This document shows positions 29,886-36,987 of a stretch of 64,000 nt of DNA, in pieces. Origin of the DNA: an archaeon (GTDB lineage: Archaea; Micrarchaeota; Micrarchaeia; Norongarragalinales; UBA97); contig JAGVFW010000014.1 in the NCBI GenBank assembly GCA_020057405.1, forward strand, positions 32,001-96,000, written 5' to 3'. The position numbers and the translations under genes were made by a program. Under the pieces are notes generated by a model. The model saw only the letters and a list, made by a program, of their open reading frames with translations. It had not been told where the DNA came from and searched no databases. Position 1 is the first letter of the stretch, and the number at the start of each line of letters is the position of its first letter.

Positions 29886-31460
29886 CTATTCCGGCGCTTT
29901 CTCGACGCGCGTGACGGGCTCGCCTGCGTCGTCGAACTTTAGCGTGCCAGCGAAAAGCTGTCGAATGGTGTCGGCGAGCTTCTTTGCGGGGAGGCGCACT
30001 TGCTTTGTCGTCTCGCGGTCGCGCATGGTGACGGTGTGGTCCTTTAGAGTGTCGTAGTCGATTGTGACGCAGTAGGGGACGCCGACTTCGTCGTAGCGCG
30101 CGTAGCGCTTGCCGACAGAGCCGCTCGCGTCGTATTCTGCGCGGAACTCTTTTTTGAGTGCTTCGAAGACTTGCATTGCCTTTTCGTCAAGGCCGTTTCG
30201 CTTCATGAGGGGCAGGATGGCGATGTCTAATGGCGCGACTCCGTGCTTTAGGTGGAGGACAATAGTGCTGCCTTCGCCTGAGGCGGCAGCGGCGCCTTCG
30301 CCGAAAGCGTCGAGGAGGAGGGTGAAGATGAGGCGTTCGCTGCCGAAGGAGGGCTCGAAGCAGTAGGGAACGACTTTTGCCTTGAGTTCCTCGTCGAAGA
30401 CGCTCAAGTCTGCGCCTGAGTGGGCGGCGTGTTGCTTGAGGTCAAAGTCAGTGCGGTTTGCGAGTCCCGCGAGTTCCTTCCAGCCCCAGGGAAAGTCGTA
30501 TTCGATGTCCCAAGTTTCGCTAGAGTAGTGCGAGAGTTCGGTTTGGCCGTGCTTTCTGGCGCGTAGTTTGCCTGGCTTGATGCCTAAGTCGTAGAGAAAG
30601 TTGAAGCACTCGGCGAGCCAGTAGGCGTGCCATCGCGTGCCGATGAGTTTGGCGGTCAGCGCGGCTTCGAGAGTCATTATTTTGCCTGGCGAGCCTTTTT
30701 CGCGCTCGTCTTGGGTGACTAGGAGGAGCTCTTGGGCGAGCATTTGCTTGGTGAGTTGCGGGCAGTCGTTTAGTTTTTGGGGGTGGATGAAGTACTCTAG
30801 CTCCATTTGAGTGAACTCACGGGAGCGAAAGACGAAGTTTCGGGGCGCGATTTCGTTTCTGAAGCTTTTGCCGATTTGGGCGATGCCGAACGGGAGTTTG
30901 CCGCGGCTTGCCGTGAGTGCTGTCTTGAAGTTGGTGAAAATGACTTGTGCTGTCTCGGGGCGCAGGAAGGCGTCGGAAGCGGCAGTGTCTTTTGCGCCGA
31001 CCTTGGTTTTGAACATGAGGTTGAAGGGTGACTTGAAGGCGAGGGAGCCCTTGCACTTGGGGCAGGCGACTTTGTGTTTTGTGAGGAGTTCTTCGAGGCT
31101 CGTGATTGAGAGGCCGTCGACGCTCTCGCCCGTTTGTTCTTCGATTAGCGAGTCGGCGCGGTAGCGCTCGTGGCACTTTTCGCACTCGACCAGCGGGTCG
31201 TTGAAGCTCTCGGCATGCCCGCTTGCTTGCCAGACTGTGGGGTGGGTGATGATGCTGCCCTCAAGGCCGGTGACGTCGAGGCGGTGCTCAACAAAGCGCT
31301 TCCACCATAAGGTCTCGACGTTGCGTTTGAGTTGCGCGCCGTAGCCGACGAAGTCGAAGAAGCCCGCGTAGCCGCCGTAGATTTCGCTGGATTGGACTAT
31401 GAGCCCGCGGCGTGAGCACAAGTTAATTACTTTTTGAGCCAAGTCTGGTTCTTTAGCCAT
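29886..31460 (-). CDS. glyS: Glycine--tRNA ligase (alpha2 type)
   Basis: FNLMF, LRPETAQ, AQIGKSFRNEI.PR..FRSREFTQME, EPSFG, GKRYARYDEVG. Confidence 0.96.
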   Translation of the reverse strand: MAKEPDLAQKVINLCSRRGLIVQSSEIYGGYAGFFDFVGYGAQLKRNVETLWWKRFVEHRLDVTGLEGSIITHPTVWQASGHAESFNDPLVECEKCHERYRADSLIEEQTGESVDGLSITSLEELLTKHKVACPKCKGSLAFKSPFNLMFKTKVGAKDTAASDAFLRPETAQVIFTNFKTALTASRGKLPFGIAQIGKSFRNEIAPRNFVFRSREFTQMELEYFIHPQKLNDCPQLTKQMLAQELLLVTQDEREKGSPGKIMTLEAALTAKLIGTRWHAYWLAECFNFLYDLGIKPGKLRARKHGQTELSHYSSETWDIEYDFPWGWKELAGLANRTDFDLKQHAAHSGADLSVFDEELKAKVVPYCFEPSFGSERLIFTLLLDAFGEGAAAASGEGSTIVLHLKHGVAPLDIAILPLMKRNGLDEKAMQVFEALKKEFRAEYDASGSVGKRYARYDEVGVPYCVTIDYDTLKDHTVTMRDRETTKQVRLPAKKLADTIRQLFAGTLKFDDAGEPVTRVEKAPE

Positions 31461-31887: not shown

Positions 31888-32358
31888 CTAGGCGACTCGG
31901 GTGCCGAAGTACTTGTTTAGCACAGCCGGGCCTGCGGGACTGGCGAGTAAGGTCTTGTGCCAGGTTTTTAGGTGTGGCTTGATTTCGGCGATTGTGAACT
32001 TGTAAGTTCCTTCTGCGCCCGTAAGCTTGAAAGCCAGGATTGCGTTTCTAAGCTTTTCTGCGCTGACGAAGTGAAAGTAGTTGTTGTGGACGAGGACGAC
32101 GTGGTGGGCGTCATTGTTTCTCCACGCTAAAACGCCGTCGTCAATCTTCTCAAGGCGGAGGGCAACGCCCATGCCGTTAACTGATTTAACCTCAACTTTC
32201 TTGCCGTTTGAAAGCACAAAATCGTGGCCCTTGGCCTTTCCGGTCGAAACCGCGTTTGGCAGCATCAACTGGACCTTTTTTTCGGCAGCCCTACCCGCAT
32301 TCTCAATTTGCCGCTGTATTTTTGGCGTCAATTTGGTTAGCTTTATTCTCGTTGGCAT
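31888..32358 (-). CDS. Putative PD-(D/E)XK nuclease-fold protein
   Basis: GRAAE..HDFVLSNGKKVEVKS motif. Confidence 0.55.
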   Translation of the reverse strand: MPTRIKLTKLTPKIQRQIENAGRAAEKKVQLMLPNAVSTGKAKGHDFVLSNGKKVEVKSVNGMGVALRLEKIDDGVLAWRNNDAHHVVLVHNNYFHFVSAEKLRNAILAFKLTGAEGTYKFTIAEIKPHLKTWHKTLLASPAGPAVLNKYFGTRVA

Positions 32359-32420
32359 GCAAACACCTAGCTCCCCGCCGCTTTAAATAGCTTTGACGAC
32401 AATATAGTTACGAAATTTAC

Positions 32421-34229
32421 ATGGCTAAAAAGTTTGAGCGCAAGGGCAACAAGCCCGGCGGCTTCAAGGATAGAGTCGACAAGACTGGCGGAAAGTTTAA
32501 GCCCAGCGGCGGCTTCGACCGCCCTCGACCGTCTTACGGCGACAGGCCAAGCGGCGACCGCCCCCGGCCAGCTTATGGCGACAGGCCGCGCCCGTCTTAC
32601 GGCGACCGCCCAGGCGGAGACAGGCCCAGGCCAACTTATGGCGAGCGGCGCGAAGGCGGTTTTGACCGGCCTCGGCCGTCTTACGGCAGCGACCGACCGC
32701 GTCCTTCTTATGGAGACCGGCCCCGGCCATCTTATGGAGACAGGAAGCCTACTTACGGAGACCGCCGCGAGGGTGGTTTTGACCGTCCTCGACCCTCCTA
32801 CGGCGACCGAGACCGGCCGCGTCCAGCTTATGGAGACCGACCCCGACCTTCCTACGGCGACAGACCCCGCCCAGCTTATGGAGACCGCCGAGAGGGTGGA
32901 TTTGACCGCCCGAGGCGCGATTTTGGCGATAAGCCGCGGTTTGGCAGTGACCGACCGCGTCCGTCTTACGGCGACAGGCCGAAGCCTGCTTTTGATGCCA
33001 AGCCCAGCGTGGGCGACAAACCCAAGCCGGCGTTTGTAGCCAAGCCTGGCGTTGGCGACAAGCCGAAGCCTTTTGAGAAGCCTGACTTTAGTGATTCTGG
33101 CAGGCGCGAGTTTGAGGATAGGGAGAAGAACTTTCACGCTAGCAGCGCTCGGCGTTACGAGCGCAAGAGTTTTGACCGCAATGGCCCCAGGCGCGACTAT
33201 GGCGACAAGCCGAGGTATGGCGGTGACAGGCCGCGTTATGGCGACCGGGAAGGTGGGGAAAGGCGGTCTTATGCGCCTGGCGGTAGTGGTTTTGGCGGTA
33301 GGCCGCAGAGGCGTGATTTTGATCGCGGTGGCAGTGGGCGGGCTGGTTTTGAGCGCCGCGAGTCTAGCCGCGACGAGAAGCCCAAGTTTGACCACGGTGC
33401 TAAGGTAGACCCGACGAAGACTGACTTTGGCGGAACTGGCTCTTCTCTTCAAGACAAGCGCATGGCGCTTCTACAGCGCGCGAAAGAAAGCGTGAAAGAA
33501 GCGTTTACCGGCAAGGGAGCTGCCCTGGCGCAGTCAATCCGCGCCCTAGACGACCTTGACTACACTAAAAGCCTGCTCTTCTCAAGACTCCAAGAATACT
33601 ACGGCATCCACTTCCCCGAACTCAAGCTCGACAACATGGAAAGCTACGCCAAAATCGCTGCTTTGGGCGACCGAAAGGGCCTAGACGAAAAGAAACTAGC
33701 TTTCCTGGGCCACGGCAAGGCAACCCAAGTGGTTAAATTGGCTGAAAAGAGCTTTGGCTCGGACTTGACGAAGGAAGAAATGGAGTCAGTCCAAAACTTT
33801 GCAACCGCCCTAGTAACTGCGAGCGAATCGCGAGAAAAAATGGCGAAATTCATCGACGAAGAAGCCAACCGCGTCATGCCCAATGTTACTGCATTGACCG
33901 ACGCCTTCCTCGCCGCACGCTTCCTCTCACTCGCCGGCTCACTCGAGAAGATGGCCCGCATGCCCTCAAGCACGATTCAAGTCATGGGCGCCGAAACCGC
34001 CCTCTTCATGCACTTGCGCTCCCACGGCAGGACTCCCCCGCCCAAGCACGGCATCATCTTCCAGTCGGCTCTCGTCAGGGGCGCTCCCCTAGAACAGCGC
34101 GGCAAGATTGCAAGGGCATTGGCTGGAAAGATTTCCATTGCGGTCAAGGCAGACGCTTACACTGGAAACTTCATCGCAGAGAAGTTGAAGAAGGATTTGG
34201 ATGAAAGGCTGAAGGAGATTAGAGGCTAG
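32421..34229 (+). CDS. nop5: Nop5/Nop56 C/D-box RNP protein with long N-terminal repeat IDR
   Basis: Coiled-coil (QSIRALDDLD..RLQEYYGIHFPEL) and Nop domain (MPSSTIQVMGAE.ALF..PPKHGIIF..RGKIARALAGK) from about aa 348. Confidence 0.9.
   Translation: MAKKFERKGNKPGGFKDRVDKTGGKFKPSGGFDRPRPSYGDRPSGDRPRPAYGDRPRPSYGDRPGGDRPRPTYGERREGGFDRPRPSYGSDRPRPSYGDRPRPSYGDRKPTYGDRREGGFDRPRPSYGDRDRPRPAYGDRPRPSYGDRPRPAYGDRREGGFDRPRRDFGDKPRFGSDRPRPSYGDRPKPAFDAKPSVGDKPKPAFVAKPGVGDKPKPFEKPDFSDSGRREFEDREKNFHASSARRYERKSFDRNGPRRDYGDKPRYGGDRPRYGDREGGERRSYAPGGSGFGGRPQRRDFDRGGSGRAGFERRESSRDEKPKFDHGAKVDPTKTDFGGTGSSLQDKRMALLQRAKESVKEAFTGKGAALAQSIRALDDLDYTKSLLFSRLQEYYGIHFPELKLDNMESYAKIAALGDRKGLDEKKLAFLGHGKATQVVKLAEKSFGSDLTKEEMESVQNFATALVTASESREKMAKFIDEEANRVMPNVTALTDAFLAARFLSLAGSLEKMARMPSSTIQVMGAETALFMHLRSHGRTPPPKHGIIFQSALVRGAPLEQRGKIARALAGKISIAVKADAYTGNFIAEKLKKDLDERLKEIRG
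32517..32972 (+). repeat. Coding tandem repeat DRPRP[SAT]YG (12 copies) with RREGGF spacers
   Basis: Repeat is near-exact at protein level while codons vary. Confidence 0.9.
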
Positions 34230-34239
34230 ACGTGGTTTT

Positions 34240-34764
34240 TTGGAATCCACCAAACGAGTTTTAAGTAAAGATGAGATTAAGCGACTAGAAAAACTATTGC
34301 GCCTCTCTTTTCATAGTATTAGAAAAATAAGAGATTCGGACACGTTAGCGAGTGCAATACAGTATCCAAAAATTCCGGCTATTTTTTCGGAATCACTAAT
34401 AATTCAAGCTTCAAAAAAGATTTTTGGACCTAAGTACAACGCCAAGCCTGGAGGAAAGCAATGTGACATAGAACTTTCTTCTAAAGGAAAGCAAAAACTT
34501 AAAGTCGAAATTAAGGCTACAGGCGACAGTAGTTTCCAGTATTTTGGAGAAAAAGACATTAATGCAGACTATTTGGTTTGGGTTTCTTTTGGCAGCTACT
34601 TCAAAAAACAAAGGCCCAAAACAACTATACAAATATTGATTTTATCTCAACCGAACAAAATATTTTTTAAACCAACTAAAATAACTCTCAAAAATTTCAT
34701 CAAAATAAGTAAAAAACACATCAAGACAAAGCACTATAAAAACACGGCTCAACTATTAAGTTAA
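34240..34764 (+). CDS. PD-(D/E)XK nuclease, Bsp6I-like restriction endonuclease fold
   Basis: IPAIFSESL..CDIE..VEIKAT..FGEK..DYLVWVSF; AT-rich DNA. Confidence 0.6.
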   Translation: MESTKRVLSKDEIKRLEKLLRLSFHSIRKIRDSDTLASAIQYPKIPAIFSESLIIQASKKIFGPKYNAKPGGKQCDIELSSKGKQKLKVEIKATGDSSFQYFGEKDINADYLVWVSFGSYFKKQRPKTTIQILILSQPNKIFFKPTKITLKNFIKISKKHIKTKHYKNTAQLLS

Positions 34765-34774
34765 AGGGAAAACC

Positions 34775-35923
34775 ATGGAAGTGCTTTCAAAACTCCGCGA
34801 CGGACGAATTAATGCAGACAATATACTAATCGAGCTTACAATTAAAGAGTACCTTGAACTCGCAGAGAAAATACTAAGCAAAAACGAGTTTCAGCGCCAA
34901 CGAGTAGGCTCATCAAAAACAGTGTACTCCTTGCTAAAAGCAGACTTGTTAAAAGGCTGCGTTATTCCTCCAATTGTACTCGCATCTAGTTCAGATTCAG
35001 AAAAAGCCCTAGATGTTGTCAAGCTTATTGAAAACGGAGATTTACTAATCCTAGATGGACTTCAAAGAACTATGACCTTACTCGATATAAAAAAGGAATT
35101 GGTTGCAAATGGCGATAAAGAAAAATTAGAAGAAATATATAGAGGAAAAATTCGCGTCGAAATATATTCTGGCGTTAATCGTCTTGGAGTACTTTATCGA
35201 ATGCTGACCCTAAATACTGGGCAAACCCCAGTATCCCTTAGACATCAGATAGAAATCCTATATATCGACTACATCAATAGGGACATTAGCGGAATTCACC
35301 TGATACGCGAAGTAGATGACGAAGCACCCGGTAAATCAAAAGAGTACGTTTTTCGGGACATAGTCGATGGTTTTAACGCCTATCTCGATCGCGATATTTT
35401 GCCAATGGATAGACTAGACGTATTAGACAATATCAGGGGACTTGAGAAACTTTCAACGGAGAACCAGAAACTAGACTTGTTCAAGCAGTTTGTGATAACT
35501 TACAATAACTTTATTGAAAAGGTCGAAATGCTCAGTAAAGATTGGGTTCAAGGCGAAAATACTAAAACAATAAGCCGACCATTTGGAAAGACAACTAGGA
35601 AGATCTTTTCAAAGTCGCAGGCAATGACTGGATTCGGATCAGCCGTCGGCAAGCTCGTCGACTACAAATTAGTTACAGGATTCGAACAAATTGACGATAT
35701 GATATCAAAATTAGATAATATCGGGCCGGATACGAGTGCAATTGATCAGCTCCTACTAAACCTTAATACGATTAAAGAGCAGTCTAAGAAAATTGGAACT
35801 TCGCAACGCTTTTACTTCCACTACTTTTTTAGAGAATTATTCAACCATGATGGCGACTCATACCTAAAATTTGATCTCGCCGTACAAAATGGCTACAACA
35901 AATACCTTAGCCAGACGGTCTAA
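34775..35923 (+). CDS. DUF262/ParB-like domain protein
   Basis: FQR, IPPIVL, ILDGLQR, LNTGQTP motifs. Confidence 0.8.
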   Translation: MEVLSKLRDGRINADNILIELTIKEYLELAEKILSKNEFQRQRVGSSKTVYSLLKADLLKGCVIPPIVLASSSDSEKALDVVKLIENGDLLILDGLQRTMTLLDIKKELVANGDKEKLEEIYRGKIRVEIYSGVNRLGVLYRMLTLNTGQTPVSLRHQIEILYIDYINRDISGIHLIREVDDEAPGKSKEYVFRDIVDGFNAYLDRDILPMDRLDVLDNIRGLEKLSTENQKLDLFKQFVITYNNFIEKVEMLSKDWVQGENTKTISRPFGKTTRKIFSKSQAMTGFGSAVGKLVDYKLVTGFEQIDDMISKLDNIGPDTSAIDQLLLNLNTIKEQSKKIGTSQRFYFHYFFRELFNHDGDSYLKFDLAVQNGYNKYLSQTV

Positions 35924-35925
35924 GA

Positions 35926-36987
35926 ATGCCACTAGTTATTGAAAATAGTGGGAACGTCCCATTAAATTTCGCTAGCTACGACAATCCAAAAAAACAAATC
36001 ATCCTAGAACAAGGCGACCTAAGTTGCACACTAGAATACAAGCTGAAATACGATAATCAATTTGACCCAACAAATTTTACAGCCCAGATGCTATTCCACA
36101 ATAACTTATCAGAAAATAATATCTTTCAGGTATATGAAAAAATACTTGGCGAAAGGATCGGCTGGATAATTCCGCTAAGTGCACTCGGATCAAATGAGCA
36201 CGATTATTCCGACAACCCCCACTTTCTTCGATATGCATACGTGGCTTACCGAAAACTAATTGATTCCGATTTTCAAACTAATAAACCAGCATACAAACTC
36301 AACTACACTCTCGAGGACTTCTTCCCACCTAACTCCGCAATATTAGTTTTAAATGATAAAACTCGGAAAATTCCAGATTTCGATATTGACAACTATTTCC
36401 CAACACTATACTTTTACGGATATTATCCCAATTATGTGCGAGTTGAATCAACGAAAGAAATGAGATTTGAAGCAGATCAAAAACGGATAACACTCTATCC
36501 GATTTCCACCGTGCTTCGAGACGAGACCTTCCTAAAAGAATTATTCAAAAACTACCTGAATGTGTCAACAGATGACATTTCAAAATTTCACTTACTTTAT
36601 CAGGTCGTAGAGCTGCTTATAGAACGCGTCTTTAGATCAAAGTTAAAGGCATGGCTTGCCGAGAACCATGAACACGAGGAAGCACATAAACTGCGTGAAA
36701 AAATCCTAGAAATTAGCAATACTGAAAAGCGGCTCGAGATCTTATTTTGCGACTACGTAAAGATTGAACGCCCCTTAACTGAACTCCGATCAATTCTTCT
36801 TGAATTTTTGGACGAAAAATCAGACTCCGACACGCCGACATCAAGGTTACTCTATCAGGCACGAAATGTTATATTTCACGGATATCGCAAACTAACTCCA
36901 GAACAAAAAGCACTCTTAACTGAATTAAATAAGTACTTAGACGAATACCTAGTAAAAGCTGTAGCGACCTACGCCGAAACCACCTAA
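35926..36987 (+). CDS. HEPN-domain protein (putative RNase effector)
   Basis: LYQVVE helix and LYQARNVIFHG (RxxxxH). Confidence 0.7.
   Translation: MPLVIENSGNVPLNFASYDNPKKQIILEQGDLSCTLEYKLKYDNQFDPTNFTAQMLFHNNLSENNIFQVYEKILGERIGWIIPLSALGSNEHDYSDNPHFLRYAYVAYRKLIDSDFQTNKPAYKLNYTLEDFFPPNSAILVLNDKTRKIPDFDIDNYFPTLYFYGYYPNYVRVESTKEMRFEADQKRITLYPISTVLRDETFLKELFKNYLNVSTDDISKFHLLYQVVELLIERVFRSKLKAWLAENHEHEEAHKLREKILEISNTEKRLEILFCDYVKIERPLTELRSILLEFLDEKSDSDTPTSRLLYQARNVIFHGYRKLTPEQKALLTELNKYLDEYLVKAVATYAETT

Follow-up and report, generated by a model that had tools for sequence, protein, structure and literature searches.

A naturally truncated Nop5 of Micrarchaeota preceded by a long Arg/Tyr-rich, predicted disordered arm

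In the textbook account of archaeal box C/D particles, Nop5 serves as a bridge that links the guide RNA to the methyltransferase fibrillarin; its structure has been solved from S. solfataricus (3ID5/3PLA) and P. furiosus (2NNW/3NMU). Here we analyzed a nop5 gene of an archaeon of the phylum Micrarchaeota (assembly GCA_020057405.1), at positions 32421-34229 on the plus strand of a 64,000-nucleotide stretch of contig JAGVFW010000014.1. That whole stretch is referred to as the window, and its own numbering is used. The encoded protein has the same coiled coil and Nop domain as the solved archaeal chains (fold-match identity 38-43%) and keeps the signature stretches GAE(K/T)ALF.HL and PPKHGIIFQ. 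It differs from them in having no N-terminal domain, in carrying an added 347-aa arm, and in being encoded apart from fibrillarin. Laboratory-truncated Nop5 (3NVI, and 3ICX, which is S. solfataricus Nop5 135-380) is an engineered construct equal to the folded part that occurs naturally here; according to its entry title, the 3NVI construct still bound L7Ae and box C/D RNA. Those entries are artificial fragments, whereas the truncation described here is natural across a phylum and comes with an intrinsically disordered region (IDR).

Two eukaryotic systems also bear on this protein. Prp31 of the U4 small nuclear ribonucleoprotein (2OZB, 3SIU) is alike in architecture, having a Nop domain that binds the K-turn/15.5K complex without fibrillarin, and it is described as lacking the N-terminal domain (PMC11213020). 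The similarity to Prp31 is nevertheless weaker (E 4.8e-15 to 5e-6, compared to 1.3e-54 for Nop5) and by sequence the protein is a Nop5; its truncation is an independent loss, and the archaeon has no spliceosome. The second system is the KKE/D tails of Nop56 and Nop58, which are reported to favor accumulation of small nucleolar ribonucleoproteins (snoRNPs) close to nascent rRNA and to form coacervates with RNA; according to the same paper, archaeal snoRNPs have neither lysine-rich nor GAR IDRs (PMC11528048).

The gene is a single uninterrupted open reading frame (ORF) of 602 aa, and the core occupies its C-terminal part (Table 1). Pfam Nop (PF01798) matched aa 376-598 with an E value of 1.9e-52 and 178.5 bits (cut-off 25.4). 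The NCBIfam model aNOP56 (NF011121) was matched only over positions 125-377 of its 417, with 264.6 bits, under the equivalog cut-off of 452. Residues 355-601 aligned to 126-375 of S. solfataricus 3id5_A and to 130-376 of P. furiosus 3nmu_A (E about 1e-54). AlphaFold2 modeled the core with a predicted local distance difference test score (pLDDT) above 90 and predicted long helices at aa 343-397 and 451-485. The best superpositions were with the N-terminally truncated chains 3nvi_A and 3icx_A (TM 0.89, root-mean-square deviation 1.9-2.1 Å, 242 columns). Full-length Nop5 chains fitted less well (TM 0.58-0.63), since nothing here corresponds to their N-terminal domain. The matched model positions, the long helices and the superposition agree on a coiled-coil dimerization domain, with dimerization itself predicted. 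Named homologues came from Micrarchaeota, e.g. Norongarragalina. These data establish the protein as the Micrarchaeota form of Nop5, whose folded part is made up solely of the coiled coil and the Nop domain, which binds L7Ae and the K-turn; the protein descends from archaeal Nop5 and would work like it.

No Pfam match to the N-terminal fibrillarin-binding domain (PF21572, PF21667, PF08156; NF011121 positions 1-124) was found in the protein. An earlier reading of this DNA, made from the letters and their translations (the sequence-only reading), had proposed a Nop5 without that domain, and the start of the NF011121 match at position 125 and of the structural alignments at 126-130 bears this out. 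A separate gene for the domain was also considered. In the genome (1.22 Mb, 17 contigs, 90.6% complete), PF08156, PF21572, PF21667 and NF011121 detected no split-off domain at E values up to 10, and the candidate was rejected, with the caveat that the N-domain models are insensitive on archaeal controls, exceeding their cut-offs in 0-2 of 14 control genomes.

We searched 201 Micrarchaeota genomes with NF011121, a sample that includes two unpublished genomes (G067 and G216). A match was obtained in 199/201 genomes (197/199 without those two), none of the 201 exceeded the 452-bit cut-off, and among the 150 matches listed the model start was at position 73 or later in all, mostly at 105-135. By these profile searches, loss of the fibrillarin-docking domain is a trait of the phylum, and the domain was undetected in any sampled genome. 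Within the order, the core as query had a match in 40/41 genomes, in open frames of 118-807 aa. Full-length matches all started at query residue 2-6, and many orthologues were bare proteins of about 260 aa that start at the coiled coil.

The same-genus L064 and 30 other loci, 31 orthologues in all, were then compared for disordered regions. An N-terminal IDR was present in 10/31 and a C-terminal IDR of like composition in 8/31; the other 13 had none. N-terminal lengths were 347 aa in L003, 184 in L005, 78 in L007, 257 in L009, 59 in L014, 211 in L015 and about 190-240 in L064. The remaining 3 (L004, L006, L019) have their IDR 5' of the first ATG, where the first-ATG start rule clipped it, and were counted as N-terminal by inspection; for L006 and L019 it is seen in P0006 and P0016. 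C-terminal IDRs of 64-174 aa were found in L008, L011, L012, L013, L021, L024, L026 and L032. The L009 arm also contains DRPRPSYG units, and the arm of L064 is G/F/R-rich with zero copies of DRPRPSYG. Across orthologues, R+K made up 20-39% of the IDRs, G 10-27% and aromatic residues 5-13%, with hydrophobic content at or below 7%, mostly at or below 4%. Composition is thus conserved while sequence, length and terminus vary, which suggests a generic physicochemical role rather than a specific docking motif. Outside the order, Nop5 proteins without the N-terminal domain and with C-terminal Arg/Gly/Tyr tails included P0059 (labelled Diapherotrites), P0038, P0051 and P0058.

Taken together, the phylum-wide loss, the bare cores and the C-terminal IDRs indicate that the arm was added to a Nop5 that had already lost its N-terminal domain, and that it is no stand-in for that domain. 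The sequence-only reading had put the IDR in place of the fibrillarin-binding domain. It was correct that the domain is absent; the replacement did not hold, with the loss phylum-wide and 13/31 orthologues devoid of an IDR, and the comparison of N-termini across relatives that it had called for argues against any local replacement, all sampled Micrarchaeota being without the domain. A literature search, with subscription journals and supplements outside its scope, found no paper on Nop5 lacking the N-terminal domain, or on its IDR, in DPANN archaea.

The arm of the window's Nop5 is repetitive and highly charged. Regular-expression counts agreed with the ORF listing and with the sequence-only reading as to one ORF in which DRPRP[SAT]YG, RREGGF and DKPKP units are joined to the Nop5 core (positions in Table 1). 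That reading had also reported RGG/GGR segments and an IDR of about 340 aa; the arm has 1 RGG and 1 GGR, so that "segments" was an overstatement, and the IDR is present with a length of 347 aa. Tandem Repeats Finder returned imperfect 24-, 42- and 54-nt arrays only, with 72-84% match. The composition was 18.7% R, 15.9% G, 13.5% P, 12.1% D, 7.5% K, 7.2% S, 6.1% F and 5.2% Y, with aromatics (Y+F) at 11.3% and charges of 91 K+R and 57 D+E (net +34). The disorder that the same reading had expected was reproduced by AlphaFold2, in which pLDDT was below 50 at aa 1-27, 29-224, 244-329 and 333-339; nearly all of aa 1-339 was thus disordered, apart from a weak helix at 227-245. The fraction of charged residues was 0.427 and the net charge per residue +0.098. 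Charge patterning (kappa) was 0.051, a value as low as which occurred in 0/500 shuffles (shuffle mean 0.157). The 39 aromatic residues were spaced 8.7 +/- 2.4 residues apart, and 0/2000 random placements were as even. Physically, the arm is a polyampholyte of net positive charge in which the charges are well mixed, Arg is plentiful and Tyr/Phe recur at regular intervals. In FUS-family proteins and prion-like domains, contacts between Tyr and Arg and an even spacing of aromatics favor RNA binding and liquid-like condensation. The sequence grammar of the arm would accordingly be classed with that of RNA-binding or condensate-prone IDRs, a classification that its patterning supports.

Whether this region is translated at all had to be considered, in that the deposited protein (P0003) is 406 aa long, 100% identical, and covers 67% of the 602-aa query. 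Its start at residue 197 omits all 12 repeat units, so in practice the deposited gene model is short by 196 residues. One scenario is that the repeats are untranslated, with the start at GTG 33009 or ATG 33462 and the upstream kilobase serving as a leader. The deposited start fits that scenario, as does the fact that the repeats also leave an antisense frame of 361 aa and a +1 frame of 201 aa open; these frames are a by-product of the GC-rich repeats. All 12/12 DRPRP[SAT]YG units, however, differ as DNA while being near-identical as peptide. Over the 66 unit pairs, the proportion of synonymous differences (pS) was 0.68, which is saturated, and that of nonsynonymous differences (pN) was 0.043, for a pN/pS of 0.064 in this frame, and the units all lie 5' of residue 197. 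In addition, the TATA-like TTTAAATA, the sole TTTAWATA-type match on the plus strand in 32001-34300, is placed for ATG 32421 at a spacing compatible with a leaderless or short-leader archaeal transcript. The IDR and core form a single in-frame ORF in 6 further assemblies of the family (L004, L005, L006, L007, L009, L064) and in the metagenome proteins P0004-P0009, and a 1-kb non-coding leader would be odd for a 1.22-Mb genome. A search of sequencing runs for the locus listed DNA runs only, with word shares of 0.08 or less, and no RNA run. The untranslated scenario is, in our estimate, barely credible. With the units identical as protein yet all different as DNA, we hold with high confidence, from codon evidence, that the arm is translated.

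The sequence-only reading had taken codon variation between units as a sign of protein-level selection, and the distinct DNA of all 12 units together with the pS and pN values supports such selection on the repeat region. Of the findings that it had named as able to overturn it, two concern the start codon and the assembly. A start at ATG 33462 is contradicted by the low pN/pS upstream of that codon and by the in-frame arms of orthologues. An assembly chimera at the junction was ruled out: the synteny with glycine--tRNA ligase (GlyRS) and the IDR-core architecture recur in independent assemblies of the family. A further alternative is that the arm is a tolerated, neutral low-complexity expansion from replication slippage. 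Variation of length, unit and terminus among close relatives, and the many lineages without an arm, would be expected from such an origin. The saturated synonymous sites beside a preserved peptide instead suggest that the units are old and under purifying selection and are not recent slippage products, and composition is maintained across families. We therefore regard neutral expansion as quite improbable.

Our preferred explanation of the protein, which we consider somewhat probable, is that of a non-specific RNA-binding and possibly condensing arm on a Nop5 devoid of its N-terminal domain. The protein would be the scaffold of a box C/D RNA-guided 2'-O-methylation particle without the fibrillarin-docking domain, and the added 347 residues would act as a sequence-non-specific RNA-binding arm, with Arg and the evenly spaced Tyr/Phe as stickers and Pro/Gly/Asp as spacers. 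Such an arm could keep the minimal ribonucleoprotein (RNP) attached to rRNA that is being made or folded and so concentrate it locally, much as the KKE/D tails of Nop56/Nop58 do; where the arm is abundant, it may form condensates with RNA. It would not be the fibrillarin tether; fibrillarin would arrive otherwise, by contacting the core of Nop5, the guide-target duplex or both, or through some further adaptor. This functional reading of the arm draws solely on sequence grammar and comparative patterns.

The KKE/D tails are the closest functional counterpart of the arm, and would be a functional analogue at most. Both are long, highly charged, net-positive IDRs on the same scaffold protein, at either terminus within the class. 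The arm differs in being Arg/Tyr/Pro/Gly-based (K 7.5%, R 18.7%) rather than lysine-rich and blocky, and its kappa of 0.05 compares to 0.1-0.4 quoted for Cbf5 IDRs in PMC11528048. The GAR/RGG domains of fibrillarin and Gar1 are likewise Arg/Gly-rich disordered N-terminal extensions on snoRNP core proteins. The arm lacks their dense RGG/RG repeats, is rich in Pro, Asp and Tyr, and sits on Nop5 rather than on fibrillarin.

Similar repeats were found on other proteins. A composition filter on the archaeon's own genome was passed by 8 open frames, of which those recognizable besides Nop5 were a DEAD-box helicase (C11:151504-152925, plus strand) with a C-terminal RGG-type tail and a TOPRIM protein (C17:28139-29644, plus strand) with an internal Arg/Gly/Asp-rich insert, which we take from its sequence to be DnaG-like. 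Outside Nop5, the arm's best matches in the database were tails of bacterial DEAD-box helicases, RluB-type pseudouridine synthases and a methyltransferase (P0068, P0062, P0061). These SYGDRPR-type tails have nearly the same units, for example DRPRPSYGDRPRPSYGDR in P0061 and GDKPSYGDRPRRDFGDKP in P0062, and all are on RNA-acting enzymes, whose catalytic domains and organisms are unrelated to Nop5. The similarity between arm and bacterial tails is probably low-complexity convergence. Such repeats thus recur in the company of RNA-acting enzymes, a link to RNA that speaks for the RNA-binding arm.

The archaeon has a single fibrillarin gene (C2:389-1063, 224 aa, without an extension), on a contig other than that of nop5, and L7Ae is encoded at C7:26324-26599. 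Fibrillarin, L7Ae and a conserved C/D small RNA (sRNA) candidate are thus all in the genome, and their assembly into a particle is predicted. In the order, fibrillarin was found in 40/41 genomes. In 13/40 relatives the nop5 and fibrillarin genes share a strand and are no more than 1 kb apart, some overlapping by 4 nt, which suggests that truncated Nop5 still travels with fibrillarin; several IDR-less orthologues overlap or abut fibrillarin in an operon. Complex prediction of full-length Nop5 with fibrillarin scored 0.50, compared to 0.00 for the best of 3 controls, with no interface reported; runs agreed on at least 13% of contacts and partner pLDDT was at least 87. The mark was reached by 116/157 solved complexes and 2/215 mismatched pairs, and scores at or below 0.60 included only 18 of the 157 solved complexes and both passing mismatches. 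The prediction lends weak support to a contact, and since Nop5-fibrillarin complexes have already been solved, it may reflect memory of them.

PMC7962484 places P. furiosus fibrillarin Tyr102 at the center of the archaeal Nop5 contact. Of 30 fibrillarins of the order, 20 have Tyr at the equivalent position, 7 Phe, 2 Leu and 1 Val; it is Leu94 in the archaeon's own fibrillarin and Leu in its genus-mate.

These observations allow a different role for the arm, namely that of a new fibrillarin tether whose units or a short motif bind fibrillarin and replace the lost domain. The arm occupies the former place of the N-terminal domain, nop5 and fibrillarin are unlinked in this genome, its fibrillarin has Leu in place of Tyr102, and the prediction that scored 0.50 against 0.00 included the arm, a weak point given the missing interface. 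However, 13/31 orthologues have no arm, several of these overlapping or abutting fibrillarin, the IDR is C-terminal in 8 orthologues, the repeat unit is wholly different within the genus, and the same repeats occur on bacterial enzymes whose hosts have no fibrillarin. We consider a tether improbable. The suggestion in the sequence-only reading of a different way of recruiting fibrillarin is unsupported on the same grounds: bare cores adjoining fibrillarin, a C-terminal IDR in 8/31, and a unit unconserved within the genus.

Genes near fibrillarin were inspected as well. A 74-aa basic ORF upstream of it (C2:137-361) was considered as a conserved adaptor and rejected, as it had no counterpart upstream of fibrillarin in 29 relatives; no conserved adaptor gene beside fibrillarin was seen in the relatives' loci. 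A gene of about 215-228 aa lies between nop5 and fibrillarin (L010:2262-2942) or directly upstream of fibrillarin, the latter also in L037, L039, L040, L042, L056 and L057 (6/30 loci). It carries motifs such as GDxTxxG and HGNMD, from which it is presumably metallophosphoesterase-like. In another archaeon, P0056 (729 aa, on a 1.44-Mb contig) is a natural fusion of Nop5 with its N-terminal domain, an IDR linker of RREGG/DRRRG type, and fibrillarin (PF01798 + PF01269).

The C/D sRNA candidate sits between two genes of the same strand. Its order is C box, 12-nt guide, D'-like CGGA, hairpin, C'-like GTGACGA, 12-nt guide and D box. Three further genera of the family have full-length homologues with 81-89% identity, and the D guide TGACGGACGG with D box CTGA was kept in 16/18 fetched loci of the order. 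The D' guide pairs with 16S 1034-1045 and the D guide with 16S 1392-1403, the decoding-center sequence ACCGCCCGTCAA. When all four C/D boxes were required in a strict pattern, the genome yielded 0 matches (0 in 5 shuffles), and Rfam gave only a sub-threshold sR2 match (19.4 bits, compared to a gathering score of 42). From its boxes and conservation, we take the candidate to be a real conserved C/D-type RNA with putative targets.

Several observations weigh against a methylation scaffold with an RNA-binding, possibly condensing arm. The absence of any IDR from 13/31 orthologues indicates that the arm is dispensable for core function in relatives. With a kappa of 0.05 the charges are extremely well mixed, unlike the blocky KKE/D tails, which argues against charge-block self-association. 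One RGG and one GGR do not make a classical GAR domain, and the bacterial-tail matches, being low-complexity, would be no proof of homology. The position of Tyr102 is aromatic in 27/30 fibrillarins, which is compatible with either loss or retention of the old interface. For the guide RNA, a conserved A.C mismatch falls exactly on the canonical N+5 target nucleotide of the D guide in 16S, and the complementarity screen returned 2 rows, both from this candidate, compared to 3 on reversed-target controls; complementarity alone is therefore not significant, and the candidate rests on boxes and conservation.

The same patterning can be read more strongly, with an RNA-protein condensate, a nucleolus-like compartment for ribosome biogenesis, as the selected function beyond RNA tethering. 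The 39 evenly spaced aromatic stickers in 347 aa, the abundant Arg, low hydrophobicity and multivalent tandem units would suit a condensate, as would the Arg/Gly-rich IDRs on the DEAD-box helicase and DnaG-like protein of the genome, and eukaryotic snoRNP IDRs condense with RNA according to PMC11528048. The argument is nonetheless one of sequence grammar alone, relatives exist without the arm, the kappa of 0.05 predicts weak self-association, and very small cells are generally expected to have little room for compartments. We think this unlikely, short of dismissing it. A broader proposal, equally doubtful in our view, is that several Micrarchaeota lineages independently added an Arg/Tyr IDR to either end of the scaffold, and that it concentrates the particle on nascent rRNA as a condensate, perhaps together with fibrillarin, the DEAD-box helicase and the DnaG-like protein. 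If true, such IDRs would be the archaeal counterpart of nucleolar snoRNP IDRs, contradicting the view of a eukaryotic invention.

The phylum has retained fibrillarin and L7Ae, together with at least one conserved C/D RNA, but lacks the end of the bridge that holds fibrillarin. This raises the question of how the enzyme is positioned, or whether the particle changed its job as Prp31 did in eukaryotes. Arms of this sort have been regarded as exclusive to nucleolar proteins of eukaryotes, and PMC11528048 states that archaeal snoRNPs are devoid of lysine-rich and GAR IDRs; this nop5 locus and those of its relatives run counter to that statement in kind, the arm being by composition neither KKE/D nor GAR. 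In a simple prokaryotic setting, it allows one to ask what such regions contribute to a particle that modifies RNA, a matter of interest to specialists in box C/D RNPs and IDRs. The analysis contributes the swap between N- and C-terminal position, the test for selection, the patterning of charges and aromatics, the similar tails of bacterial enzymes, the weak complex prediction and the C/D RNA of the archaeon's own genome.

Table 1. Features of the nop5 locus and the guide RNA candidate (window positions unless a contig is given)
Feature	Position	Strand	Basis
Coding sequence for aa 1-347, the disordered N-terminal arm	32421..33461	+	Composition, patterning, AlphaFold2
Block with 12 DRPRP[SAT]YG units (aa 33-184) and 3 RREGGF spacers between them	32517..32972	+	Regular expression, codons
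42-nt repeat x2.4 encoding (A/D)KPxVGDKPKPAF units	32970..33071	+	Tandem Repeats Finder, 78% matches; 2 DKPKP
Nop5 core: coiled coil and Nop (C-terminal, L7Ae/K-turn-binding) domain, aa 348-602, stop included	33462..34229	+	Pfam, NCBIfam, structure
TATA-box-like TTTAAATA, 31 nt 5' of ATG 32421	32382..32389	+	Sequence reading; putative promoter role
Internal GTG (aa 197), start of the deposited 406-aa model	33009..33011	+	Position derived from 602 minus 406
Glycine--tRNA ligase, divergent neighbor of nop5	29886..31460	-	NF003211, 590 bits
174-aa ORF ahead of DzbA/DzbB, family unassigned	34240-34764	+	ORF listing
DzbA, Dazbog-type defense pair	34775-35923	+	PADLOC, E 8e-138
DzbB, Dazbog-type defense pair	35926-36987	+	PADLOC, E 1.6e-63
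C/D sRNA candidate, 61 nt	C2:44751-44811 (locus L070:52-112)	-	Box architecture, conservation

Divergent GlyRS is found beside nop5 also in L010, L020, L023 and L064, and its conservation as a neighbor marks this as the ancestral nop5 locus. GlyRS and nop5 are directly adjacent and divergent in relatives; here a 156-aa ORF (31888-32358, minus strand), with no Pfam, NCBIfam or PADLOC match, intervenes. Directly 3' of nop5 is a low-GC island (34240-36987, plus strand; GC 0.32-0.42, compared to 0.55-0.60 around it), which occupies the place of fibrillarin in many relatives. This Dazbog region looks like a horizontally acquired defense island. Elsewhere in the genome, the 23S rRNA match (C11:135910-139650, minus strand) spans 3741 nt against a 2987-position model, so that the 23S rRNA probably contains insertions or introns.

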